This document shows positions 3,650 through 62,362 of a DNA stretch of 64,000 bases, piece by piece. A program made the translations under genes and the position numbers. The stretch lies in assembly GCA_951406725.2 (NCBI GenBank), contig OX597823.1:57908001-57972000 (forward strand), given 5' to 3'. The DNA comes from Octopus vulgaris (Eukaryota). A model generated the notes under the pieces. That model searched no databases. It was not told where the DNA came from and worked only from the letters and a program-made list of their open reading frames with translations. Each line of letters begins with the position of its first letter. The first letter of the stretch is position 1.

Positions 3650-5085
3650 ACAAACACACTTACATGCATTTTCAGTACTAGTGCTGATCCCAACATTTGA
3701 GATACTTGAATGGTCTGTAGAGGAAATCCACTCCAGGCAACAACTGGGAACTGCCACAGAAACAGTAATGTTGACAGGTTCTACCTAATAAGAAATAAAG
3801 GTGGTAGAAGCCTGAGATCAAGGCAGACGGCCTTCGAATGCCGTATGGTATCACCCAGACAGCACCTACTAAACAACAGCAAAAATAAATATATAAATGC
3901 ACTGCTGAAAAGTGAAGTGAGCAACATTATACGAGTTGGTAGTGAACTCCTCAAGAAGCATTCTCTTCCTGATGATCTCCTATATAGCCCCAAAACAGTT
4001 CGGCTCTCTTACCTCAGAGAAGACCTAGATGGAAAGCACTCAGTATGCAAAAAAAAAAAAAAAAAAAATAGACTATGCACGGGTATGTTCCCCGGAAGCT
4101 TGAAGAAGACTGTAGAATTGACACGAAGTGCAGCCTTTCTTGGACACAAGACTGCTACATCACATCAACCATTGAAGGTTATGCGTTTGCAATGCAGAAA
4201 CAGAAGATTGCCACAAAGTACCTGGTGAACAAAAGAGACAGTAGCGCTCTTGTAATCCCAAGGACCTGCCACATGTGTAGGCTATGTCATGTCTCTGTGG
4301 AAAACATCACGCATGTGATTAGAAGCCGTCCTAAAATATCGTCACGGTACTCTCCGTGGAAAACATCACGCATGTGATTAGAAGCTGTCCTAAAATATCG
4401 TCACGGTACTCTCTGTGGAAAACATCACGCATGTGATTAGAAGCTGTCCTAAAATATCGTCACGGTACTCTCTGTGGAAAACATCACGCATGTGATTAGA
4501 AGCTGTCCTAAAATATCGTCACGGTACTACCTCACTATGCGGCACGATGTTGTCGCTAAAACAATTTCCAATGCCATCCGCAAAAAAGACTGTGCTGAAA
4601 TAAGCTTATAAAATCCCTGTTATCGAATACATTCATTAACACCAACTCAAGGAATACTGGTGGAATATTCCCATCAAAATGTCTGTTAAATGTAAACATA
4701 ACAGGCTGGATATTGTTGTTTGGACAGAGGGGAAAAGGTATGTACCATCATAGAAGTCAACTGCCCTGACTTAAAGAAAGAGAGGATATCTATGGGCAAC
4801 TGCTTCGAAACCTCCAACTTCTATATCCAGACTATGGTATGAATTCATATTCATACCAATAATAATTGAAACACTAGGTTTTATTAGTAAATGCTTAAAA
4901 GAGAATCTGGATAAACTGGGATTTTCAGAAAGAGAAATCGACCGGCTAAGTACTACATTGCAAGTGCACTCAAGTTCCAAATGTGAATTTGTCTGTGTTA
5001 ACTACATCCCAAAGATGGGGCCTTGTATCTTTACTGGAAACTGACTCCCTCCTCAGTGGAAGATTTAAGATAATTAAAAAATAGA
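3650..5085 (+). mobile_element. 5'-truncated non-LTR retrotransposon with restriction-like endonuclease (R4/Dong-like), pseudogenised
   Basis: Across frames: HAFSVLVLIPTFEILEWS; HRNSNVDRFYLIRNKGGRSL (RT thumb); WTQDCYITSTIEGYAFAMQKQKIATKYL; CCHC knuckle CRLCHVSVENITHVIRSCP; RHDVVAK; YWWNIPI..KHNRLDIVVW..TIIEVNCP (PD-(D/E)xK-like); PIIIETLGFI. Confidence 0.85.
4293..4528 (+). repeat. 4 x 59-bp tandem repeat inside the retroelement zinc knuckle
   Basis: Unit CTCTGTGGAAAACATCACGCATGTGATTAGAAGCTGTCCTAAAATATCGTCACGGTACT at 4293, 4352, 4411 and 4470, with two substitutions in total. Confidence 0.95.
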
Positions 5086-5269: not shown

Positions 5270-5425
5270 CGTTTTACGTTCTGAGTTCAAATTCCACTGA
5301 GGTCGACTTTGCTTTTCATTCTTGGTTTCGATAAAATAAGTACCACTTTAACACTGGAGTTGATGTTATCGATTTACACCCTACTCCGAAATTGCTAGCC
5401 TTGTGCCAAAATTTAAAACCAATAT
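5270..5425 (+). mobile_element. SINE family A (5'-truncated)
   Basis: TTACGTTCTGAGTTCAAATTCC..GAGGTCGACTTTGC..AAGTACCA..GAAATTGCT.GCCTTGTGCCAAAATTT, matching copies at 45047 and 52068. Confidence 0.85.
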
Positions 5426-6516
5426 TTGCTTATTAACTCACAATGATATCAAACCATGAATTTTAGCTTATTCTCCAAAAAAAAATCTGATTTTAATTGT
5501 TCGATTTATTCTTTGTCAACAGTTTACTAATGTATGTCAGTTTTTGTTTTCTGTTGTTTTCTTTTGTTTTTAGTTGAAATTGAGATATTTGTAACTATAC
5601 GTTTCGTATATTGTAACATGAAGTGATATGATGCGTTCGACATAGATCCTTATCAGAGAGTAAAGTTCGCGAGGACTTTACTCGAATCATTATTACTTTT
5701 GTCTCCCCACGGCATACAAACTTATGTAGAAATTTATACAAACTTTACTGAAATATATTTGCTGACGCAGGCGACTACAACTTACCTCGGGCTTTAGTTT
5801 TTAGTTGTTATTCATTTTGAGATTTCCATCTTCTAGTTGCAAATTTATGCATCTCAGTTTTATTTTCGCCTATACTCAGTCAAATGTTTCTTGGGCCCCG
5901 CTTAATTTATATGACTATACGCAATAGGTGAATTATTAATTAGAAAGTGATTAGCAATTAGTAACTTATTAGTAATTTAAATTTTTGTTTAAGCATTGTG
6001 TATATGCGTAGTGAAACCATATATGCCGTGTATTAAAACAGCATTGTAATGAACACATTTAGATAGCCGCATGGATATTCAATTAAAGCTCTTGTTCGCA
6101 GATCGCAATTTGAAATCCGTCGCAAGATTTATTTTAAAGGCAAAGGTTTAGGAGCAAAAAATTCCATGCTAAGCGACGCAGGTGACTTAAATATATGATC
6201 AAATACATTTCATGAACGGTCAAATTATCATTATCTGAGACTCAATATATGTAGACTACATTATGGAATGTTCCGTTCGTTTTGTAAGATATTTGTGTTT
6301 ATTAAAGGTCAATAATATTGCTTGGAGGTAGTGTGAAGACAGTCTCCCTTGTTACTCGGCATCAAATAGCATATTGTAATTCTTATTATTGAAGTAGCTG
6401 AATCTGAGATCAGCTGTCAACGAAAGGTGTTCAAGGTGTGAATATCCTATCTGTAATTTCAGACTGTCTCTTTCTAAAGGTATATTATCCATTGTGTTCA
6501 CCTTTTGTCGCGAGTA

Positions 6517-7175
6517 CGAGGGTCAGTTAAAATTTTCAAAACCTGACTACGAAGGAGTGATGCTTGAACTGCTAAATTCATTAATTTAAATCCTTATGAA
6601 TAACTGCATGAAAGGAAAATCTGGCACTCTTTGAGACACATCCAGCTGGTTTCCTTAAATGTTTCGCAACCCAGAGGATGTGTGCTGGGTTCATCACTTT
6701 GAACCAGACACAAAGAAACAATGCATGCAATGGAAACTCCCCGCCTCTCTTGATCCCAAGAACGCCAAGATCGTTTCATCTGCAGGGAAGGTGACAGTAT
6801 CAGATTTTTGGGATGCAAAAGGTAATGACATGAATGATGAGTACTATGCCAACTTGATAAGGCGGTTACGAAATGCTATCAATACAAAAAGAAAAAAACA
6901 GGAAAACTGACGAAAGGGTACTTGTTTCATGCTGTTGTGCATGACTGTAGCTTTTAACGGGTTGATCACCTTCCCTATTCTGATTTGGTTACATCTAACT
7001 ATCATCTGTTCCCCAGCATGAAAAAAGTATTGACTGGGAACCAGTATCGCAGTGATGTTGACGTCATATCTACTGTTCATGAATTGCTTGACCACGAGGA
7101 TGAAAGCTTCTTCACCAATGGGACCGAAGCACTCCAAAACCGATGACAGAAGTGTATGGCTATGTTGGAAAATAC
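6517..7175 (+). mobile_element. Internally deleted mariner transposon (pseudogene)
   Basis: Starts TA|CGAGGG. ORF 6659-6910 WVHHFEPDTKKQCMQWK..SAGKVTVSDFWDAKG..EYYANL; downstream LPYSDLVTSNYHLFPSMKK (YSPDLAPSDY-like). Confidence 0.9.
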
Positions 7176-7689: not shown

Positions 7690-7925
7690 TAAATATTAGG
7701 GAATAAATCCAAATTTACAGGGAAAAAATCAGATTTAGGATTAAATCCAATTTTATAGTAAAATATTATATAATATTAATTGTGAGACAAAACCACTATT
7801 TTGCAAAACAAACAAGGAAAGACTTAATCAATACATAAACATTTTTAATATAAAGAAATAAACCGCCACTACAATCGTTTCATGTCTTCAATGACATTCG
7901 TCAGGTGGATTTTCGATCTCCTAAT
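7690..7925 (-). mobile_element. ORF-less Penelope-like terminal fragment carrying a hammerhead; truncated second copy at 61692-61775
   Basis: Contains the hammerhead at 7866-7908. GAGACAAAACCACTATTTTGCAAAACAAACAAGGAAAGACTTAATCAATACATAAA recurs at about 61.7 kb. Flanked by TA repeats. Confidence 0.65.
7866..7908 (-). ncRNA. Type I minimal hammerhead ribozyme motif
   Basis: Minus strand CCAC-CUGACGA-AUGUC(AUUGAA)GACAU-GAAA-CGAUUG-UA-GUGG: stem I CCAC/GUGG, intact core, 5-bp stem II, GUA cleavage triplet, vestigial stem III. Confidence 0.85.
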
Positions 7926-11599: not shown

Positions 11600-12570
11600 C
11601 AGTCCCACTGCGTGGCACCTTGAGTTAATCTCTTTTACTATAGACCAACACCATGTGAGTGAATTTGGTAAACAGAAATTGAAAGAAGCCCGTCGTATAT
11701 ATATATATATATATATATGTCAGGTCACTTTCGAGTGCTACTGGTAACATGTAACCCAGTACAACCTGTTGCATGGTCGGGTCGTCGGCGACTAAACCGG
11801 CAACCCCAAAAGCTTGCTTGGTGAGGAGGGTATTTATTGGACACCTTGCGGGATGAAAAACAAAACCCGTCAAAGGGCGGAGGAACTCTTGAGAGTCAAC
11901 GGCTATACAATAAATGTCTTTAGGCTGTATCATGCGCGGGGACATAGAAATAATCGGACTGAATACCCGATCGTGCGCTTAAACCACTGGGAGTGAAGGA
12001 CTCCTAGCCTTTGTTAGGGCATCCTTCTAGGAGAGGGTAACTCAGATAACGGGGATAACTCCGACATAAAACCTGTGGCTCAGTGGTTACCGATGATGTT
12101 GACTTGTTCTTCTCTTCGGATTATGGCTGCTGTTGCTTAGTGAGTGGGATTGACTCAGTGCACAGTCTTTCCTCACTTCAATAAAAATCTTCTTGCACAG
12201 GAATTGCACGATAACAAACAACATTGATTAAGCTTTGTGCAATGGCCATACTCGATAACGAGGGGTCAGCCACCATATATATATATTTATGTGCATATAT
12301 ATATGTCTTTGTGCGGACATATATACACACACATACATATGATTGTGTGTCTGTGCTTGTCTCTCCACCATCGCGTGACAACCGATGTTGGCGTGTTTAC
12401 GTCCTCAAAATTGAGCGGTGGAATGAGATCTATGCTTACAAACCGATGGAATGAGATCTATGCTTACAAAAAATAAGTCCTGGGGTCGATTTGTTTCTCT
12501 AAAGGCCATGATCCAGCATTGCCGCCGGCCGCAGTCAAATTACTGAAACCAGTAGAAGGATAAAGAATAA
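11600..12570 (+). mobile_element. SINE family B split by a 550-bp insertion
   Basis: 5' part CAGTCCCACTGCGTGGCACCTTG..AAAGAAGCCCGTCGTATATA (11600-11720); 3' part TGACAACCGATG..AATAAGTCCTGGGGTCGATTTG..GGCCGCAGTCAAAT.ACTGAAAC (12340-12570). Confidence 0.8.
11721..12274 (+). mobile_element. GC-richer non-coding insertion, possibly the 5' region of an RTE-type LINE or a derived non-autonomous element
   Basis: Sits exactly in the SINE's internal TA microsatellite with TA repeats on both sides. GCATCCTTCTAGGAGAGGGTAACTC resembles RTE 5'UTR motifs (recalled, unverified). Confidence 0.5.
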
Positions 12571-12609
12571 ATGAATACATACATACATATATATATATAT
12601 ATGTCACTC

Positions 12610-13010
12610 TCTCACGTGTCTTGAATGGGCTGGAGTAATTCTATTTTGGATGTATTTGGGGTACTTAGTTGTGCTCATGACTTAGTGTTTTGCTTCTTCC
12701 ATGGGTATGAGTAAGTATCTCATTTATTTCTTTGCCACATTTATCACTGATGAAGGGAGGGTTCTTACGAACTAACCCTGAAATCGGTTCGATATGGTAA
12801 TAATGGAATTCTATGGAAATTTCTGTCGGCTTTTTTTGGAGTAGTGTGCGTATTGTGAAAAATTATATGGTAATGGACAATATGTCCAATTTTAGAAATG
12901 TTTGCGTTTGCCCTTATTTATAAGTTGTTTATAATTTTAACCTTTAAAGATATTTTTTAATATACTGGCCATTGATAAAATTTTTTTTTCGAAAGAATTT
13001 TATGCTACTT

Positions 13011-13015
<5 letters not shown>
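12610..13015 (+). mobile_element. ORF-less Penelope-like terminal fragment with hammerhead
   Basis: About 400 bp bounded by TA repeats, contains the canonical hammerhead at 12741-12800, T-rich 3' part. Confidence 0.6.
12741..12800 (+). ncRNA. Type I hammerhead ribozyme motif, fully paired
   Basis: UUAUCA-CUGAUGA-AGGG[AG GGUUC UUAC GAACU AA]CCCU-GAAA-UCG(GUU)CGA-UA-UGGUAA: 6-bp stem I with one GU pair, extended stem II, stem III UCG/CGA plus the A15.1-U16.1 pair; AUA cleavage after 12794. Confidence 0.9.
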
Positions 13016-13053
<38 letters not shown>

Positions 13054-13083
13054 ATTACTGCATAGATACACACACACGCACAC

Positions 13084-13125
<42 letters not shown>

Positions 13126-13510
13126 TATGTGTATAGATTCCAAAGAGGAGGAAGAAAAAGGGAGGGAATGATGAGGAGGGCTGAACTGTTAAATGAGTAT
13201 GTAAGCCATTGTCCTATTCCTTTCAGTTTAGTTATCCACGAGGAAATTTGTTGAAATTTCGAAGGAAAGTCTTCATTACGTTTGACAACAACGTGAGTTG
13301 TGCTTGAATACTTGTTTACATGAAGGAATACTGCTAAGGGCGCAAATCAAAATGACATGAAGCCAACTGTAATGTATAAATATCGCTGTCACTGTCTTCC
13401 TCTCTTACGTTCTCCATCTCTGTTGTAAAACATGTATGCATATGTATCTATAGGTACCTTAATGTATGTATGTTATGTATGTGTGTGTGTATATACATAT
13501 ATATATATAT

Positions 13511-19014: not shown

Positions 19015-19674
19015 CTAGGTTCTTTGGCTGCTATTTCTAAAGTTCGATATGTGGTGAAGCAAACTCTTTTGCTGAACCGTAATTATAATTATACTCATAA
19101 TTATAAAATATATTGTTTAAGTTAACCGAAAAAGGTCCTTTTAACATGCCGAGTACTACTTCTCAATTTAATCAAAGATTTGATTTCTGTGCATTTTTGA
19201 GTACGATTCGGTAGCATGTTTACTGACTCGCTAACGTATCTTTCCTAGGTAGAATCATCAGAAGTGAAGAAAAATGGGTTCACCTAATCACATTTAATGA
19301 AAACTACAATGATTAGAATGCGATGAGAAAAGAGAATTCATCCCCCAACCAGGACCATACCTGTAAAATGTTATGCTCTGGAACGGATGAAATATGAACG
19401 TCATCGCCTGTCATGGAGGGTTAAGCGAAAACGAAACAGATAATGCGAAGAAATACAGTCGTCAATCGGAAGCCTTCCTCAGAAATTTATAGAAAATATG
19501 TCCATGCTTGATCTAGCGTGAAAGGAATTTGCTCTTATACGATAATGAAGTACCACATATTTCCCAGGTTATGGCGGAAAAGATTATGGCATTAAATAAG
19601 TGAGTTTTGCCTCATATTCTTTACTCTCCTGATTTTTTCCTAGCTGACTATCAACTTCTCAGATCATAGTCATA

Positions 19675-19877
19675 TTGGTTTCAAATTTTGGCAGAAGGCC
19701 AACAATTTTGGAAGGGAGGTAAATCGATCACATCGATCTCAGTGCTCAACTGGTAATTATTTTATCGACCCCAAACTGATGAAAGACAAAGTCGACCTCG
19801 GTGGAATTTGAACTCAGAGTGCATGGACAGTAAGCATTTTGCCGGCGTGCTAACAATTCTGCCACCTCACCGCCTTC
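19675..19877 (-). mobile_element. SINE family A
   Basis: AAAGTCGACCTCGGTGGAATTTGAACTCAGA..CCGGCGTGCTAAC.ATTCTGCCA.CTCACCGCC is the reverse complement of the family A head. Confidence 0.9.
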
Positions 19878-20101: not shown

Positions 20102-20326
20102 ATGTGTTTGTGTGTATGTGTTTGTCTCCCCAGCATCGCTTGACAACCGATGGTGCTGTGTTTACGTCGCCTTAACTTAGCGGTTCGGCAAAAGAAACCG
20201 ATAGAATAAGTACTAGGCTTACAAAGAATAAGTCATGGGGTCGATTTGCTCGACTAAAGGCGGTGCTCCAGCATGGCCGCAGTCAAGTGACTGAAATAAG
20301 TAAATAAGTATAAGAGTAAAAAGAGT
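19920..20326 (+). mobile_element. SINE family B, near full-length
   Basis: tRNA-like head GGCTGTGTGGTAAG (A-box-like) and GGGTTCAG (B-box-like), internal TA/TG microsatellite, 3' tail (AAGAGTAA)n. Confidence 0.92.
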
Positions 20327-20545
20327 AACCTAAAATATTAAACCTAAAATATTATATAAACCTAAAATATTTCATGTCTAAGAGATCAATAATTTGTCAA
20401 ATAGATGGTATATTGGTTATCAATGATGAAGGGCTAATTTTGTGATCAAATAAATCAATCAACGCATAGGAACAATTTGTTTCTTCCTTGTCTCAAAATA
20501 CAAACGACACTCACTTTCCAACCGAACGTACGCCTTCACTGTCTC

Positions 20546-20763
20546 TACTCTATTTACTCTTTTACTCTTTTACTTGTTTCAGTCATTTGACTGCGGCCAT
20601 ACTGGAGCACCGCCTTTAATCGAGCAACTCGACCCCGGGACTTATTCTTTGTAAGCCCAGTACTTATTCTATCGGTCTCTTTTGACGAACCGCTAAGTGA
20701 CGGGGACATAAACACACCAGCATCGGTTGTCAAGCAATGCTAGGGGGGACAAACACAGACACA

Positions 20764-20828
<65 letters not shown>

Positions 20829-32804: not shown

Positions 32805-34061
32805 CAGTGGTTGGACAAGATAATGGCAACACCTAGCATCATAGCATCATAAATCTGAAATATCTATAAAACCGTTAAAAGCTTGTTCAATTTTTCTGTT
32901 TTCTTATTTATTATTAGTGTTACTTAATATGTTTTGCTAAAATTGCTGTTTCTTTTCAGATATCAAGAAAAGATAATTAAATTCATTAAAATGACAGATC
33001 TATCGGACTTTTAAAGAGGTTAAATTGTTGGTGCTCGTATGGCAGGCGCTAGCGTAACGAAAACAGCCGAAATGCTCAGTGTATCAAGAAGTACTGACCG
33101 CCTTTGAGAAAGGGGGAAAAAAACCCTCGTCGAAACAAATCTCCTGAATAAAACCCAAACTTTCAGATAGGGACTGTCGGACTCTTACGAGAAATGTTAG
33201 AGAGGATCGCAAAATTACAGCTCCCAAAATTACTGCAGAACTTAATGACAACCTCGAGAACCCAGTTTCCACAAAAACTGTTCGCGAGGAGCTGCACAAA
33301 GCCGGATTTCACAGGAGGACTGCAATCTGAAAACCATTACTTTCAATAAAAAAATTTGCAAAGCGTTTAGAGTGGAGAAAAAACCCTACAGAATTGGTCC
33401 CTGGAGCAGTGCAACAATGTTATTCTCTGGGTGGAGTCATCCTTTACCTTATTTCCGACCACCGGCCGAGTATACATGTGGAGACGGTCAACAGAAGCAT
33501 CTGACCCAGACTACCTTCTTCCATCTGTTAAACATGGAGGAGAATCTGTGATAATCTGGGGTGCTATATCTTGGAAATCCGCCGGCCCAATGATTTCCCT
33601 CCATGGCAGAATTAATAGTCAAAATTACTTAAGGATTTTATCTGATCAAGTTCATTCTATGGCAGTGGAACTGTTTCTGGAAAGAAACGTAATCTTTCAG
33701 GATGATAATGCACCAATTTACACAGCTAGAGTTGTTACTGAGTGGCATGTGATAATTCTAGTGAAGCTGAAAATCTTATCTGGCCACCACAGTCCCCACA
33801 CCTCAATATTATTGAACATTTATAGTGCATTGTAGAAAAACAAGTAATACATCGATATCCTCCACCATCATCACTACAAGAACTGGAAACTGTTTTAGCT
33901 GAAGAATGGACAAAAATTCCTTTGGAAACAATTCAAACTTTGTATGAGACCATACCTCGTATAGTTCAAGCTGTAATTACTGCCAAAGGCGGTCCTACCC
34001 TACATAAAAATAAATTTGTCTGAAATTCTAAGGTGTTTCCATTATTTTGTCCAACTCAGTG
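32805..34061 (+). mobile_element. Full-length Tc1-like transposon (DD34E type), transposase pseudogenised
   Basis: About 30-bp TIRs CAGTGGTTGGACAAGATAATGGCAACACCT / AGGTGTTTCCATTATTTTGTCCAACTCAGTG. Transposase from ATG 32991: MTDLSDF*RG*IVGARMAGASVTKTA..VKHGGESVIIWGAIS..FQDDNAPIYTA..WPPQSPHLNIIEH; stops and frameshifts. Confidence 0.95.
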
Positions 34062-38397: not shown

Positions 38398-40380
38398 TTA
38401 GTTTAGTTGAAATATGTTTCTCACATATTTCAACTGCTAAAGGCAAATACAGGGCAGTTACCGTGGAGAAAAAAAATCTGTCTTAATGTAGAAAGGTGTG
38501 AGAACACCCCTTTCGTTCAGTGTCGTCCTGTCTCGGAAATCTGAGACATCGATGTTTTGAGTTTATTGACTCTTGTCGATCAGATATGTCTGAGAGGGGA
38601 AACCCTGGACGAACTGACTTAAATTGTGATTATACGTAAACACTGCTTTACTCAAGTTCATCCTCTTTCAGGATAGTAGAGTTTAACTTGAAGGAGTTTT
38701 GAGCATTACTTCCTGCAGCTTGAGGCTTGCATCTTTAGTTTGTAGGACACAATACTATCCTACTATTGGTGTCTGAGTGACCCAGCAATGACCGGTAAAA
38801 TTCGGAGTTGAAGATTTGGAAAGCAAAAGTGAGAATATAAAATAACCGCATAATATATATATGAAGATTATTTTAGTTATACAGGATTGATATCTGTAAA
38901 TAGCTACTGAGCATTACAACCACATTAAGAAAACAAAGAACACTTCTTATATATGGGGACATATAAATGAATAAAACTTATGATGTGTGGTGATAGTCAC
39001 CGGTAAGAGATTATCTAGCTTATCGTAGAAGTAATGTGCTTATATAGTCCTCATATACTAAGAGTTTGAATGCAAATTAGTTATTTCCACCTTTCATTCA
39101 GAATCAACTGCAATAAGTCTTAAGAAATACGATTCAAATATCTCAAAAGTTTATACATAATTCTCCAGAGAATTTTAAAGAAATTCAATCTGTTTATTGC
39201 TAATTGCAACAAAAGTCGATTTGTAGTACAAATCCTGAAGTAATAGTACGTAAGTGTATGATTTTTAAAATTTCTTTTCCCTTTTTAACTAAAGATATTT
39301 TGGTTAAGAAATTAAAACAAACAGAAATGAATACAGAAATGATGATCAAATGTAAGGCAGAGGAAGCTGCTATCGAAAGGTGTGGTTCTAAGCACGATAT
39401 CCCTAGGAAAAACGTATATGCAATGGAGAGGAATTTATTGACGTCTTTAGTATGATGAAGCCCTTTAAAATAGTTCAACTCTTTTGTTAAACAGCAATTG
39501 TTCTGAATCGATGAACCGTAGATATTTAATGACAACATAAAGGAATAATGTCAGCATCAAAATAAATGTTTCACTCCAATTGACAGTTATTTCTTCATCC
39601 AGATTAAGGCGCCATAATAAATACAAACAAATATTAATTTCACGCAGAACCATAACATACAGATTCTGAACAAGTAGCGTTTAATATCAACTATATATAG
39701 TTTCTCATGTCTGCTCTTAATGAGCTGTATCTATCAAGGGTTTATTAGCTATATTACTTTCATGGGAGACATGAATCGAGGGTATATCAGTGACGCGTTT
39801 CCCAGGGAAGTTAGTAATGAGAGTGAAATAAAATGGCTAATCACTAGAGCCATTCCTTTTTTCTTTTTTTTTTATTGTATATTTCCTTGAGAGCTTTCTT
39901 TTCTCTTTGTTCCCACAGCAGGATAGACTTGAAAAATAAATATATGAAACCCGCGACATTTTACTGGAATGTACCGACAACAAAACAAACCGAATCTTGC
40001 GTTAAATGGAACCAATCAATATAATTCTGTATTTACTTCATCAATCCGAGAGAGATGAAAAGTAAAGTCGATTATCGTGAGGGTTGAACCAAGCAGAGAA
40101 TCTTAATTACAGTCAAGCATCAAACTGTAGGCACACGCCTTAAAACAAACAATCTCAGACTAACCCACAACCATTATCATGCCTGATGGTCAGTTATCAC
40201 GGTTATTTGCAAGCAAATCTTCAACGTACGGAGAAAATCAATGAGTCAGAGTTTCTTCTCTGAATATTCGTGGGAAGAGATGAAGTTAGAACTACGATCA
40301 CATACACACAAAATCGCCAATGAAATTTTGCTAATTATTGATGTTATTGCTGTTTAGCTGTGTCATCTCTGATTGAACAG

Positions 40381-41476
40381 ACCAATAAAGATAGGCATTC
40401 CATCCTTGGATATCCTACCTTTGTTTCAGACAAAGAATATTGAGGTAACCATTATTGTATTCGTCTGAACGCTTAAAAGATGGTAGGGTGTGAGTTGAGA
40501 GTGATTTAACTAATGTTTCTAGAAGATCGAGGGATTCTTTAATATCCCGTGTTACGTTTGTACTAATTGTCCTGTGTCAGAAGCGGAATAAAATCTTCCA
40601 TGAGATTCTCAGGTCTTTCGAAATTATATTCAGGCCGCAGACATTATCAAAATATTTGTAACAAAATATGGGGCGACATTTCAGCTTTACTGACCAAAAG
40701 CAGAAACAATTCTCTTAAAAACCTTCCGTACCAGATTTCATTCTCAAAACTGAAGCCAACCCGGGTATGGAATTGAACCAAAATACACTTCATTGTGAAG
40801 TGGACATCTGAACCACAAAGCCATTACTGCCTCCATAAAATAATTAAAGAGAGAGAAGATTTTATGACAGCTCACAAAGAATGGCACTTTGGTTAGTTGC
40901 TCAATGTAAACGAGATTAAGTAAAGCTGACCAATAAAGATAGGCATTCCATCCTTGGATATCCTACCTTTGTTTCAGACAAAGAATATTGAGGTAACCAT
41001 TATTGTATTCGTCTGAACGCTTAAAAAATGGTAGAGTGTGAGTTGAGAGTGATTTAACTAATGTTTCTAGAAGGTCGAGGGATTCTTTATTATCCCGTGT
41101 TACGTTTGTACTAATTGTCCTGTGTCAGAAGCGGAATAAAATCTTCCATGAGATTCTCAGGTCTTTCAAAATTATATTCAGGCCTCAGACACTATCAAAA
41201 TATTTGTAACAAAATATGGGGCGACATTTCAGCTTTACTGACCAAAAGCAGAAACAATTCTCTTAAAAACCTTCCATACCAAATTTCTTTCTCAAAACTG
41301 AAGCCAACCCGGGTATGGAATTGAACCAAAATACACTTCATTGTGAAGTGGGCATCTGAACCACAAAGCCATTACTGCCTCCATAAAATATTTGAAGAGA
41401 GAGGAGATTTTATTACAGCTCACAAAGAATGGCACCTTGGTTAGTTACTCAATGTAAACGAGATTAAGTAAAGCTG
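40381..41476 (+). repeat. Tandem duplication, 2 x 548 bp (about 97% identical)
   Basis: 40381-40928 and 40929-41476 align without gaps; about 17 substitutions counted by eye. Duplicated ORFs at 40567 and 41115. Confidence 0.97.
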
Positions 41477-44432: not shown

Positions 44433-45046
44433 CCCATATGCACACGGGCATAAATATGTATACAACTGTCTTTATATTTATATGCTTCTGTGTGTGAGTG
44501 AGATGGAGTGTGTTGACAAACCTCGGGTGAACGAGACAGAAAAAAATACAAGTTAAAATCGTATGCATACATATATAAACGCACACATACGTAAGGATAT
44601 TATCCTAACATTTATTCATTATATATTCTTCTTTCAATGAACGAGCTGGTTTCTTACAAAACTACAAAACTCCATCCACGGAAGATAGATAACAACTGCG
44701 GTGAAAAGTTACATGTTCGACATTAGAAAGCTTTACATATTTCCGTTTTTCTGTTAGTAAACGAAATTTACGAAAGTGCGTTTACTGATACCTAGTGTGC
44801 TTAGAAAAGAAAATAAGAAAAAAGAAAAAAACTTGTTTGACATTTAAACAGTTACTAATATAAGACAAATGACCACCACTTTTAGGTACACATGTGAATA
44901 TATAATCTGCATAGTTAAACTGTAAATTTTCAAAGCAGTAATCCATAAATATTCTCTATCACACTGATTTTCGGAGAAATGTGTAGGGCAGCTGTCCTTT
45001 GCAGCTGTTGTGATACTAGCGCTTTGCCAATATTCATTGTGTCCAA

Positions 45047-45240
45047 GGCGGTGAGCTGGTCGAATCTTAAGCACGCCGCACAAAACGCTTAGCGGCATTT
45101 CTTCCCTCTTTACGTTCTAAGTTCGAATTGTGCCGAGGTCGATTTTACCTTTCATCCTTTAGGGTCGATAAAATAAATACCAATTGAGTACTGTGGGCAA
45201 TATAATCGACTCACCCCTCCCCGAAATTGCTGGCCAATAT
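45047..45240 (+). mobile_element. SINE family A
   Basis: GGCGGTGAGCTGG..GCACGCCG..TTACGTTCT.AGTTCGAAT..GAGGTCGA. Confidence 0.9.
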
Positions 45241-46459
45241 TCCTCGTGTTGGTAATTACGTTTGCATTCCACAACAGAGTGAGTTTTTGTATTTATCATG
45301 TCTCAGCTTTTCCAATGTATGATATTGTGGCATTGTGTATTGTTTTAGCAACAGCATTCCAATTTACAAGTTAATAACTTAATGTCATTTTTGGGCATTC
45401 GCACAACATTTTCCGTCTTGCTTTGGCTGTTTAAGGGCGCTTAAGATCGTTTAATACTGTTTTTGTTTGACATTAGCTTTCTTCGCTTAGTTTTTAAGAG
45501 TATCATTTTTTTAGATGTAGCGTAATGTCACTGTTACAAGCTCAACAGAAGCTACACATCCTGCTAATGTAAGCATCAACTACAAACTTAGGGAAGTCTA
45601 CACACAGCATCGCTTACATGTTATGCAGATCAGATTGTTTCAGCTACAGGTTCTTTGCTGAGGTACGCTAGTCCAGCAATTCTGCAGTCATATGAAACGT
45701 GTCGAGGAGTGTTCACTAAATGTTGAGCTTTGCACTTTTTAGTCCTTGATTGATGTATCTATATCTGCTGCTGTTATTTAGGAGGTGTTGTGTCTGGGAA
45801 ATGATCCTAAACTCAAAATCTATCTAAACAGATGTTAAGCACATTATCCACTATTTTCCTTAGTGACAAATATTGCCATTTCTACGATAGCTTCTACTTG
45901 AAGTCAAGATCTTGCAATCTTACGCATTTTCATATATACGGACCAGCCATGTAACCCAAATATTGGTAACGATTTTGATACCAATACCGGTATTATAAAT
46001 ACATAGGGATATATGTTAGAATATAAGTGGAAATCTCCGACTGCCTTATTTTTGAAAATCTAGTGTAATATTCTCTAGTCACTCTATCTCTTTGTTCACA
46101 GCACATTTAAATATTTTGGTCAATAGCTTCATATATATAGCACTTGTTGAAGGAACATGGGAGATACAAGAGCACTGATGCTAAGATTTTACGCATAGAA
46201 GCGAATTTCTCTCATACGACTACCAAGCATAAGCAATTCTTATGATCAAATTCCATCTCTATATCATCTGAATATGTTGCCAATAAATTCATGTGTTGTA
46301 ATTATTTACATTACTGAGTTTTTGACGGTCCATTAATAAATTATATGTTACATTGTATCAATTGCCGTCGAAGGCCCTAAAACAGAATCAAAGAATTTTT
46401 GTAAAAGAACCTTTTGGGGATTAGTGCCAAAATATACCGTACAGCATACACGCCTGTTA

Positions 46460-46657
46460 TTGGTTTCAAATTTTGGTACAACGCCAGTAGTTTCGCTGGA
46501 GGGTCTCAGTGAATTATATTAATACCAGTAGTCCACTGGTACTTCTTTCAACGACCCCGAAGCGATGAGAGGTCAATCTGGGCACAATTTGAACTCAGAG
46601 TGTAAAGACGGACGAAAAGCCGCCAAGCATGTTAACAATTCTGCCAGCTCGCCGCCT
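46460..46657 (-). mobile_element. SINE family A
   Basis: TTGGTTTCAAATTTTGG..TTTGAACTCAGAG..ATTCTGCCAGCTCGCCGCC. Confidence 0.85.
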
Positions 46658-46939
46658 TTCTTCACACATGCTTGACTTCTTTATACCATGAAAGAGCTGC
46701 TTTTTGAAATAGCAACAAAGCTCAATTACTTCCATGTAGATGACAAGAACGGTGTCATACGTTGATCTTTATAAAAGTCTTGCAAACTTTTACTGTTCTA
46801 CTTACAGAGTGTATTTGTAAAGTGCATGTACGCATAAGTGCGCGCTTGTATGCACTTATTTAGATATGTACGCATGTACGTATGCGTGTTGGGAATCACA
46901 CGCCGCACCCATTCAAGTGTGTATATATGCACATATGAT

Positions 46940-49839: not shown

Positions 49840-50053
49840 TTTTTTACTCTTTTATTTGTTTCAGTCATTTGACTGTGGCCATGCTGGAGCACCGCCTTTA
49901 GTCGAGTAAATCGACCCCAGGACTTATACTTTGTGAGCCTAGTACTTATTCTATCAGTTTCTTTTGCCGAACCGCTAAGTTACGGGGATGTAAACACACC
50001 AGCATTGGTTGTCAAGCGATGTTGGGGTGACAAACATAGACACACAAACATAT

Positions 50054-50215: not shown

Positions 50216-52067
50216 ATACACATATAAATCTTTTTTCTAATCTTCTCTTCTGTATTACCTATCATCTTTGGTGCAAACTCGGCCGCATATTCAACCACTT
50301 CCTGAACGGAAACCAGATCTTCTATTTCTCTCCGATAAAACTACATTTTGTCAGTGCTGTGCAGATTATATTCTCTGAGCATTTACATACTTCCTTCTAT
50401 TCATCATTCTCTTCTTCTCACGTGGAGATCAGCAACAAATACTTCTACATACTTTGATTTAAAGTATCTCTCTATCTTTCTTCCGAATGTATCTACGTTT
50501 TCTACCATTTTCCGGATTCCTTTAATCACACGCGCGCACTCACGCAGACGTACACACAAAAATGTATATATATATATACAAAATTTTGAGGAATGACCAC
50601 TAAAGTGGACACCCTATATGCTAAACATAGACGTTATATCGCCATTACTACGAAGAATGTGTTCTCAAGAAAAAATCTCAGCTGAGATTTTTTTTTTGAG
50701 TTTTTAATCTTCGGATTTTTTAAATATGCTAAGCCACTAGTTTTAATTGGTTAACATCAATTTCTACCCTTATTATTTAATTTTATATATATATGACAGG
50801 CAAGTATCTTTCACTTTCAGTGGACCACTTACGAGTCTTTAGTCAGTTCGAGACTGAAGAAACTTGCTCAAGTTGTCATGCAATATGACTAAAACCAGGA
50901 CCATATGACTGGGATACAAACTGCGCACCACACGGCCGCACCAGCGTCTCTTGTCAGATAGACCAACCACTATTTTGTCTTGACTGTCCACCATACATTA
51001 ACGCATTTAAGCCGCTCGGGACTCTCTACCCCGATTCTATTTGACTTCAAATCAGCCGCTCATCTCAAATCTCTACTATGTCACTTCACTTCTGACCTAT
51101 CAGAAAAAGATGGGCGTCTGACTAAAATCGGCTTCTTAGCAATGTCCCTCCACATAACCTAATCGTTATATACATACTTTACAAAGTCACCCAAATTTTT
51201 CGTTCGTAATTCTGCTTCAACATGTCAGGAAAGAACAAAAATTACAACACTTCGAGAAAATGGCTTATACCTACAAATTGAACAGCTTCACTGACCGCTG
51301 CAAATCACGGAACAGTAAAGTTTCGGCAATACAATGATTAGTTTATTTTTAATTTTTTTTAATAATTTCCCTTCAGCAATGAAAATATAGTAAGTAGAGA
51401 TAAAACAGTTTTTCTATACTTCCCAGTTAAAGTGTTCAAAATGTATTCTTCTCTACTTGTTGGTCGGAGAACGAATAAAAAATAAAGAAAACCGTTGTCC
51501 AGGTTGCTTAAAAAAATTGCAAGCACTCACACTCGTATATAATGTGTTTGTCAACGTGAGAGCAAGACGCATAAGGCATAGTCATCAGTAGAAGCATGAG
51601 CCTGTGGTAAAGAAGTTCTTTTCGTATAGGGTTCAACCCCAGTTCGTGATACCCTAAGTAAGGGTCTTCTATCACATCCAGCCTTGAATAAGCTAAAATA
51701 CTATGAGTGAAATCACGTAGATGCAAAAATATGTTGATGCCATTCTGATCGAATATATTTGTTCTTGAATGGTAGATTTAATTTCTCACATTGTTTAACG
51801 CCACCATCTCTTCAACATGTGGGTTTTATGGGGCCCTATCTTTGGCAAAATTTTCGGCTACGAGGTCCTATTTGAACTAAAGAATCTGATGAGTCTTGAT
51901 TGTTTCCTCTCACTCTCTCTTTTTTTATTAATTGCAGAAGGTCACAAAACTGTTCAAGAAAGCTGCCCATCTTCTATAGGTTAAACCATGACAAAGAATA
52001 TAGGGAAACTGTTAAGTTATAAAACACTGAACAAATTGAAAGTGGTTTTAATATTATTTGTAATTAA

Positions 52068-52920
52068 GGCGGCGAGCTGGCAGAAACGTTAGCACGCCGG
52101 GCGAAATGCGTAGCCGTATTTCGTCTGCCGTTACATTCTGAGTTCAAATTCCGCCGAGGTCGATTTTGCCTTTCATCCTTTCGGGGTCAATTAAATAAGT
52201 ACCAGTTACGCACTGGGGTCAATATAATCGACTTAATCCGTTTATCTGCCCTTGTTTGTCCTCTCTGTGTTTAGCCCCATGTGGGTAGTAAAGAAATAGG
52301 TATTTCGTCTGTCTTTACGTTCTGAGTTTAAATTCCGCCGAGGTCGAATTTTCCTTTCATCTTTTCAGGGCCAATAAATTGAGTACCAATTACGCATTAG
52401 GATCGATCTAATTGTGTAGTCCCTCCCCAAAATTTTCGGGCCTTGTCCCTAGAGTAGAAAAGAATATTATTTATAATTAGGGCAGTGAGCTGGCTGAATC
52501 GCTGCCGCACCGGACAACAATCTTAACGGCATTTCTTCTTATTTTACGTTCCAAGTTTAAATACTACCGGGGTCAGCGTTGCTTTTTATATTTTCGGAGT
52601 CAATAAATAAGTACCAGTTGAATACTGGGGTCGATATAATCAAATTAACCCCGCCCCTGAAATTGCTGACCTTGTACAAGAATTTGAAATCTTGTTCTAG
52701 GGTGGTGAGCTACTAGGATCGTTACCTCACCGTAGAACATGCTTGACGGCATTTATTCCGACTTTACGTTCTGTGTTCTAATTCTGCCGAGGCCAACTCC
52801 GCGTTTCATCCTTTGAGGGACGGTCGATAAAATAAATACCAGTTAAAGCTGACGTAGATAAAATCGACCTACCACCCACCACTGCGAAATTGGTGGCCTT
52901 GTGCCAGAATTTGGAAATCG
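52068..52920 (+). mobile_element. Head-to-tail cluster of SINE family A copies (52068-52462 composite, 52480-52695, 52700-52920)
   Basis: Three GG(C/T)(G/A)G(C/T)GAGCT heads; the first copy carries a repeated internal block; 17-bp TSD-like repeat at 52050-52066 / 52463-52479. Confidence 0.92.
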
Positions 52921-53181
52921 ATATTGCTTGTAACTAAGTACTCACATTAAGAGTTTTCAAACAAGAAAATAAATATTTATCCAGTATTTCGGGAATATGT
53001 GTGATTCTATGGCGCTAATGCTTTCCCTAAAGATATGAAAGACATAGACTATATGTAATAAATGTGAGAAGAGAACAATAAAAAAGAATCAGGTCATGCA
53101 TATACATCTTAGAGAGCATTTCCTGGTTCTCAACTCGTCTGAAATCAATATTTTCAAAAATAGAAAAGAGAAGTGACATTC

Positions 53182-53602: not shown

Positions 53603-53797
53603 CATACATTCATGTATCTATGTATAGATGTCTATTTATATATTCATTTATATATGTACATGCATATATGTATGTCCGCATGTATATATGCATGCGTGCA
53701 TGTATGTATGTATGTTTGTATATACTCATATATACATACATAAAGACATACACTTATATGTAAGTATATTGGTTTGTTGATAAACATAATTATTTCA

Positions 53798-53853
53798 TCA
53801 GACCTAAAGGTTTCGTGCATCTAATTTTGAGGGTCATCATCACTCATCAGTGA
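53798..53853 (-). ncRNA. Type I hammerhead ribozyme motif
   Basis: Minus strand UCA-CUGAUGA-GUG[23 nt]CAC-GAAA-CC(UUUA)GG-UC-UGA: intact core, GUC triplet, short stems I-III; lies in a roughly 100-bp island between microsatellites. Confidence 0.8.
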
Positions 53854-53981
53854 GAGTTATATACATACATGCACACATACATGCATATACACGTATGTAT
53901 ATGTGTATGTATGTTTTTATGTATGCACGTAAGTACTTGTTATATTGTACGTAAGTATGTATTTAAGTATGTATGGATATA

Positions 53982-61618: not shown

Positions 61619-61696
<78 letters not shown>

Positions 61697-62362
61697 TTAG
61701 AGACAAAACCACTATTTTGCAAAACAAACAAGGAAAGACTTAATCAATACATAAAATTTTAATAAAAAGTAAAAAATATATATATATTTATAAGATAAAA
61801 CTTACTTGGAAAAGGATGTGTGGCGTTCGATCATATAATAGTATAAATAATATATAAATATATGCATATATACATACATATACATGTACAAACGTGGAGT
61901 AGATGAAACTGGGACAACTGATGAAGAGGAATATTCTTAATGTTGTATGTCTTGTTTCTGTTTTTTTTCGTTCGAAAAAATTTCGTTTTCTATGTTTTTG
62001 TTTTTATGTTTTCGTTTCTGATTGTGTTCAAAGTTCTTTTGATGTCCTATACCGATATATGCTTGTATATATACATATATATGTAGGTATGTACATATAT
62101 GTATATATCCATATATTAAAATATTATTTATATTGTGTATATATATATATATACATATGTATATATATGTGTGAGCAGGTGTCTTCATGGTTGCGTTTGT
62201 GAACCGTCAGGGCTTGATAATAAATACTAGGGTCGATTTCATCGATCAAACACTTCTAGACGGTGCCTTAGTATGACCATGGTCCAATGACTAAAACAAG
62301 CAAAAGATTAAAGATAAAAAGTAGAAAATAAGGAGGGCCAGCAGAACAACAGCAACAAGAGT

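Follow-up and report, generated by a model that had tools for sequence, protein, structure and literature searches.

An intact type I hammerhead motif in a lone Octopus vulgaris copy of a high-copy repeat, and a family palindrome suggestive of cleavage in pairs

Results

Type I hammerhead motif at 12741-12800

The window, by which we mean the whole 64,000-nucleotide stretch of Octopus vulgaris DNA that was analyzed, is AT-rich, microsatellite-laden animal DNA. A repeat copy of about 410 bases lies in it between (TA)n arrays, with 41.5% T on the + strand and a G+C content of 32.5%, and this copy carries a hammerhead motif. The features of the locus are listed below, with core positions in hammerhead numbering.

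12576..12602, no strand: (TACA)n/(TA)n microsatellite, left flank, from the sequence
12605..13012, + strand: isolated, diverged member of a high-copy repeat family, from contig recruitment, with no second copy in the window
12711..12716, + strand: putative splice-donor-like GTAAGT, the sole GTRAG in the element, 30 nt upstream of the hammerhead
12735..12806, + strand: 3-bp stem I extension (12735-37/12804-06) above a 3x3 internal loop, from the fold
12741..12800, + strand: type I hammerhead ribozyme motif, from the sequence and a descriptor scan (0/300 shuffles)
12741-46/12795-800, + strand: stem I, 6 bp including one G-U
12747-53, + strand: core CUGAUGA
12754..12779, + strand: extended stem II overall, pair probabilities 0.94-1.0, with matched changes in the family
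12754-57/12776-79, + strand: base helix of stem II, 4 bp
12760-64/12769-73, + strand: upper part of stem II, a 5-bp hairpin with loop UUAC, reached through a 2x2 internal loop (AG/AA)
12780-83, + strand: GAAA
12784-86/12790-92, + strand: stem III (UCG/CGA), closed by the 3-nt loop GUU and built on the pair A15.1-U16.1 (12783/12793)
12794/12795, + strand: predicted cut, after 12794 = A17; cleavage triplet AUA, U16.1-A17 at 12793-94
13014..13123, no strand: (AT)n microsatellite, right flank, from Tandem Repeats Finder

Positions 12741-12800 hold a genuine type I hammerhead. It combines a CUGANGA core, GAAA and UH with a three-helix junction in which stem I is open, and the internal loop in its stem I extension lies six pairs from the core, the place of loop 1 in full-length type I hammerheads. 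Pair 10.1-11.1, which closes stem II, is A12754-U12779 and not the G10.1-C11.1 that is usual, if not strict, according to the available text of PMC4209133. The first-pass annotation had described an intact core, a 6-bp stem I, an extended stem II hairpin, a real stem III (UCG/CGA plus an A-U pair) longer than that of minimal Penelope motifs, and a cut after A12794 on the + strand. This architecture was borne out: CUGAUGA, GAAA and U16.1-A17 are all present, stems I and III can be read directly from the letters, both the fold and matched changes across the family agree with the stem II hairpin, and the predicted cut was correctly placed. The stem I extension and the A-U closing pair of stem II are additions to that annotation. 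Family changes at 12756 and 12777 fit stem II in the register given here, so an alternative shifted by one extra base after A9 was rejected.

A strict descriptor (stem I at least 6, stem II at least 4 and stem III at least 3 bp), whose thresholds were fitted to the focal motif, matched this site alone in the 64-kb window and nothing in 300 block-wise dinucleotide shuffles. Loosening it to 4, 4 and 1 bp gave two window sites and a match in 1 of 300 shuffles, and the loosest version gave three window sites, with one match in 15 of 300 shuffles and two in none. Rfam returned no hammerhead match at gathering level over the whole window, and it equally missed all 20 of 20 phage hammerhead motifs, so this negative carries no weight; at E<=10, the 57 weak matches in 12000-13500 included no hammerhead.

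Other repeats in the window

A second, minimal type I hammerhead lies at 7866-7908 (- strand), with a stem I of 4 bp, a stem II of 5 bp, a stem III of 1 bp and a near-palindromic tetraloop. It is typical of Penelope elements and unrelated in sequence to the focal motif. The stretch downstream of it (7772-7862) has a 91% identical copy at 61689-61776, whose start lies about 8 nt beyond the predicted cut and which runs out in (TA)n. A third hammerhead-like motif, at about 53790-53860 (- strand), forms a short island between microsatellites and has a stem I of 3 bp, a stem II of 3 bp with a long loop, and a stem III of 2 bp with a tetraloop; its predicted active fold is 9.3 kcal/mol uphill, and it is the weakest of the three against chance.

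Tandem arrays include a 549-bp unit duplicated at 40380-41476 (97% identical) and four 59-bp units at 4292-4528 (98% identical). A SINE-like dispersed family of about 220 bp has copies at 12343-12571, 20108-20327, 20546-20766 and 49842-50047; those starting at 20108 and 20546 form an inverted pair, and the old copy at 12343-12571 lies just left of the hammerhead element. Also to the left, between TA runs, is a 550-bp island of higher complexity (11720-12270) with neither a Pfam match nor a copy in the window. Another short repeat family has diverged copies clustered at 52050-52929, several in tandem, and others at 45029-45235, 46458-46658, 19672-19876 and 5272-5431. A Pfam search of all 360 ORF stretches of the window found three matches below cut-off and two Tc1/mariner transposase remnants, at 33148-33327 (+) and 6659-6907 (+) (PF01498, PF01359).

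The repeat family and its variation

Self-BLAST found no second copy of 12603-13010 in the 64-kb window, and two short motifs from the ends that the window copy is missing had no match there. Sequence from 12605-13010 was partly present in 20 of the 24 listed runs, from four organisms, and never with more than 0.43 of its words in a run. We recruited 4034 family contigs in X1 (organism A, 76% read), 3302 in X3 (organism B), 1253 in X7 (organism D) and 289 in X14 (organism A, guessed to be RNA), with depth in 29 of 29 bins across the element in each of these four runs. Because thousands of distinct contigs were recruited, the repeat is a high-copy family, although summed contig depth does not equal copy number. 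The family was found in none of the metagenome contigs, prokaryote genomes or viral contigs searched. Two viral matches to a looser pattern (L001 and L002) were dropped, since they had no hammerhead stems on inspection.

Family sequence continues past both ends of 12605-13012 as loose ends, and these ends indicate that the window copy lacks about 20 nt near 12612 and about 14 nt near 12892. At no fewer than 10 places, 79-100% of family depth differs from the window copy in all four runs; it is therefore an aged copy, or partly one of another lineage. Some of its private letters may also be lineage differences, as the window species may differ from organisms A, B and D.

The variants listed within 12735-12806, which are unphased depth shares of contigs, fall at 12737, 12751 (N7), 12756, 12759, 12762, 12768, 12769, 12771, 12777, 12789 and 12804. 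Among them, changes in the motif are at N7, in loops or pair-preserving, and none of the 40 variant rows listed, out of 50, touches an invariant core base. In stem II, the shares of 12756 G>A (13, 8, 10 and 35% in the four runs) follow those of 12777 C>T (8, 11, 12 and 32%), and the shares of 12762 T>C (3, 6, 9 and 31%) follow those of 12771 A>G (3, 10, 16 and 33%). The paired shares correlate over the four runs with r of 0.95 and 0.98, values that are unphased and lean on one run. Both helices of stem II thus appear to have been kept through matched changes, as compensatory changes would keep them. In the stem I extension, 12737 A>G (27-59%) and 12804 T>C (6-12%), again unphased, are compatible with the pair. 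Stems I and III have no variant among those listed, which says little.

The GTAAGT upstream of the motif is kept in two loose-end consensus rows that differ in the letters preceding it. Among the X14 contigs listed, there was neither a spliced joint nor a pile-up of ends. At a loose end behind 12732 in the same run, two contigs exit the family sequence just before the hammerhead into an altered core-like stretch, maybe a subfamily with another hammerhead.

A rival helix in the monomer

Folds and energies were computed with a nearest-neighbor model that leaves out tertiary contacts, Mg2+ and proteins. One further helix was predicted within the motif.

12746..12788, + strand: predicted inhibitory helix (12746-51/12783-88), 6 bp, which would tie up C3-U7 of the core

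This helix belongs to the best predicted fold of the monomer. In the RNA from 12700 to 12840, the rival helix reached a modelled probability of 0.96-0.98 once 12788 had been transcribed, at every chain length tested and at both 37 and 20°C. The two family letters, at 12751 and 12789, lowered this probability to 0.68-0.80; the family majority has C at 12751 (55-79%), which makes the helix one pair shorter. The predicted cost of the active monomer fold was 6.19 kcal/mol for 12735-12806, 9.2 for 12700-12840 and 10.1 for 12613-13001.

As a yardstick, a generic core pattern was run over about 10 of 64 parts of a viral collection, and the 124 loci obtained gave 93 distinct type I motifs, the other 31 giving no motif or a repeat. 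These phage motifs are putative and, by choice of pattern, G-C-rich, and 84 of the 93 have a stem III of at least 4 bp. The window copy would pay more for its active fold than all 93 of them (highest, 4.87 kcal/mol). The phage median was 0.59 kcal/mol (84 with a stem III of at least 4 bp), and the six with a 3-bp stem III cost at most 2.9 kcal/mol. With the family C at N7, the cost fell to 3.9 kcal/mol, still above 92 of the 93. The claim of the first-pass annotation that the motif is fully paired, cleaves as a monomer and is the best candidate for a currently active ribozyme thus appears doubtful, given a modelled probability of about 0.97 for the rival helix and 6.2 kcal/mol for the active fold. 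It is further weakened by the dimer-type palindrome of the family (below) and by the state of the window copy, which is lone, diverged and without a partner in the window.

A palindromic stem III in the family

The window copy has U at 12789, where C accounts for 85, 99.8, 99.8 and 100% of family depth in the four runs. The family letter creates the following feature.

12783..12793, + strand: stem III and loop 3, which with 12789 = C form an 11-nt palindrome with one central U

Set against a second copy of itself, the family sequence of 12783-93 makes 10 Watson-Crick pairs around one U-U, whereas the window copy makes 8 Watson-Crick pairs and 2 G-U pairs. The computed stem III self-duplex is worth -13.9 kcal/mol with the family C and -8.5 kcal/mol with the window U. 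The C at 12789 is therefore worth 5.4 kcal/mol to the duplex and nothing to the monomer hairpin, which comes to 0.0 kcal/mol at 37°C with either letter. Relative to two free monomers at 37°C, the active swapped dimer was computed at -5.6 kcal/mol for the family letters, +0.6 kcal/mol for the window copy with a family copy and +4.4 kcal/mol for the window copy with itself, and the ranking was unchanged at 20°C.

A short stem III with a palindromic loop is one mark of hammerheads that act as dimers, and the family has it; the other, a second copy in tandem, was not found within the window. As a rule, published hammerheads of this kind have a palindromic loop 3 and cleave as dimers (PMC4209133, PMC6765202 and the legend to Fig. 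S8 of PMC3088659), and the signature of dimer-acting hammerheads is given likewise in the accessible text of PMC6466107. The palindrome of the family suggests that it would cut as a pair.

Genomic junctions beside the predicted cut

Three of the 12 joints listed for family copies end exactly at 12796.

12794..12796, + strand: junction ends at 12796 beside the predicted cut, from three joints in family copies

Two of the three are inversions (12796/12910 and 12796/12949), each seen in X1 and X3, and the third is a skip from 12731 to 12796 in X1, with 12796 as its start. Each joint comes from a single contig in each run, and which way the inverted pieces point is not stated. The predicted 3' cleavage product starts at 12795, so the junctions are offset from it by one base, which is unexplained. 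The chance of at least 3 of 24-28 ends falling near the cut is 0.002-0.005 within 2 bases and 0.02-0.05 within 5; if both inversions share one origin, it rises to 0.03-0.05 and 0.13-0.21, respectively. These junctions may come from copies made from cleaved RNA and, if so, would be a fossil trace of cleavage in vivo. Because most family depth crosses the intact motif, cleavage would then be the exception or be undone by ligation.

Discussion

Our preferred reading, which we judge probable, is that the window holds an intact type I motif in a lone, mutated 0.4-kb repeat copy, likely a Penelope-like pLTR or a non-autonomous derivative of one, whose hammerhead would cut mainly as a dimer. The motif, the high copy number, the family variants and the flanks were observed, the folds and energies were computed, and the Penelope origin, the dimer use and any cleavage are inferred. 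In a single RNA, the ribozyme would be off, its core bound to the 5' strand of stem III in the rival helix. Two motifs brought together, for example on one tandem transcript, would pair through the 11-nt palindrome into a long stem III common to both; this would displace the rival helix, and each core would then cut after A17 (12794). The window copy itself is likely a poor or slow cutter because U12789 and U12751 would make its dimer weaker and the rival helix stronger, and because it has no partner nearby.

Several traits of the repeat are Penelope-like, including (TA)n on both sides, the 8 inversions among the 12 listed joints and the donor-like site upstream of the motif. Penelope-like elements insert in truncated and inverted form, target microsatellites, and have a pLTR that contains an intron and a hammerhead (PMC8557442 and PMC4209133), and our family has inverted insertions and microsatellite flanks, the latter being weak evidence as microsatellites are everywhere in the window (14% masked). 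These elements make up 6.83% of the Octopus vulgaris genome (PMC13282606). Pfam matched no reverse transcriptase or GIY-YIG domain in any of the 360 ORF stretches of the window, a search that short or frameshifted remnants would escape; this is as expected of a truncated copy, and it makes the link to Penelope elements an indirect one.

The metazoan Penelope pLTR hammerheads (Cervera and de la Pena 2014, PMC4209133, available text) share with the focal motif the type I topology, a long stem II, a palindromic stem III and loop 3, dispersed single copies in many families, compensatory changes and a predicted use as dimers. They differ in having a stem III of 0-2 bp, whereas the focal motif has 3 bp and a triloop, and in lacking its 6-bp stem I with a further helix and its stem II split by a 2x2 loop. 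They also have an extra base between A9 and 10.1 and a G-C at 10.1-11.1, where the focal motif has no such base and an A-U, and the focal copy is without a linked ORF. The double hammerheads of newt satellite 2, ASBVd and Aedes (legend to Fig. S8 of PMC3088659; PMC6466107, in part) have the same weak stem III, with a loop that is fully paired in the dimer. The Aedes example has 10 bp, while our family has 10 pairs around a U-U in a palindrome of odd length, and the focal motif differs further by its explicit predicted rival helix in the monomer.

The repeat could instead be the unit of a tandem non-LTR retrozyme of about 400-450 nt that makes circular RNA, with the window holding a dispersed monomer and the dimer mechanism unchanged, a reading that we find somewhat unlikely. 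Its size and G+C of 32.5% do match mussel retrozymes of 350-390 bp, low in G+C (PMC7229834, in part), the copy has no coding frame, dispersed monomers are common among retrozymes (bioRxiv 10.64898/2026.07.22.740005, in part), and the 289 contigs of the guessed RNA run would suit it, though they are not proof of transcription. Animal retrozymes of mussel, coral and axolotl (Cervera and de la Pena 2020, PMC7229834; Li et al. 2026 bioRxiv; both in part) also have the same 6-bp stem I, 4-bp stem II base, non-coding unit of about 0.4 kb, low G+C and high copy number. They have, however, a simple loop 2 where the focal stem II has an added hairpin, and they occur as tandems and circular RNA. None of the 12 listed joints is head-to-tail, in contigs too short to bridge the missing part, the family runs on at both sides, and the many inverted junctions and microsatellite flanks suit a Penelope-type insertion better. 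The two parentages may also be close, as retrozymes have been argued to descend from Penelope pLTRs (same bioRxiv preprint, in part).

An earlier reading, in which the window copy folds into its active form alone and cuts efficiently as a monomer with the help of loop 1-loop 2 contacts between its two internal loops, we regard as unlikely. The intact core, the 6-bp stem I, whose internal loop stands at the customary distance, the 4-bp stem II base and the 3-bp stem III all fit such a reading. Most tested invertebrate type I hammerheads, including those with a short stem III, cut as monomers, those of coral and mussel at 0.8 and 0.1 per min, and the mussel hammerhead does so without the archetypal tertiary bases (rates from PMC7229834; otherwise PMC7229834 and PMC7761336; available parts). 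Against this, the stem III hairpin is worth 0.0 kcal/mol, the rival helix (0.96-0.98) can arise while the 3' strands of stems III and I are still to be transcribed, the active fold is 6-10 kcal/mol uphill depending on context, stem II is closed by A-U instead of G-C, and the family retains a palindrome that a monomer would not need. A slow cut by the monomer at high Mg2+ would be no surprise, but efficient cleavage is improbable.

Much less probable is that the repeat is a tRNA-headed SINE with a hammerhead, like the schistosome Sm-alpha elements. The stretch just before 12613 in family copies, absent from the window copy, holds a 9-mer resembling a B box, but such 9-mers are common by chance, no A box lies within 30 letters, and runs of four T at 12644 and 12688 before the hammerhead, with six more after it, would make a poor Pol III transcript. 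That the host has domesticated a hammerhead present in one copy, as with the conserved intronic ones of amniotes, would agree with the intact core and the donor-like site and is scarcely credible given thousands of related contigs, a window copy whose letter at 12789, within the motif, is not that of the family majority, and no host exon in the window by Pfam.

Within the preferred reading, in which a Penelope-like repeat carries a dimer-type hammerhead, a more specific proposal is that the family hammerhead has two states, off in the monomer through a conserved helix that sequesters the core and on in the palindrome dimer, and that the insertions at 12796 are fossil proof of cleavage in vivo. 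We put this forward tentatively and consider it possible rather than probable. Copies beginning at 12796 start one base inside the 3' product, and the insertions are common to two organisms. In the Anolis element PAc Poseidon (Frangieh et al. 2024, PMC11167929, in part), the Penelope hammerhead is likewise inactive as naked RNA and a refolding step is invoked. Cleavage there needs the protein of the element, and no RNA-seq reads end at the cut, whereas our family has three genomic junctions beside it. For the Anolis element in vitro, cleavage was not needed (same source).

In a literature search confined largely to open-access papers, we found none on an octopus hammerhead family and none that places the ends of Penelope copies at the cut. 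One supplementary file each of PMC8557442 and PMC13282606 held none of the family motifs, and the repeat family may already be catalogued in repeat libraries. Cephalopod hammerheads are known in bulk, with 235 'hammerhead 1' loci in the giant squid genome (PMC6962438, in part). Thousands of such motifs are known in animals and the window copy looks decayed, so the single locus matters little. The part worth attention is the off/on design of the family together with the junctions at the cut, for which tests of copy ends and of monomer and dimer cleavage would be cheap. The role of Penelope-type hammerheads in vivo has been called 'unclear' (PMC8557442) and a 'mystery' (PMC7761336) in the text available from these papers. 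If the two-state proposal is true, the junctions would be direct genomic evidence for a Penelope-type hammerhead setting the 5' end of reverse-transcribed RNAs.
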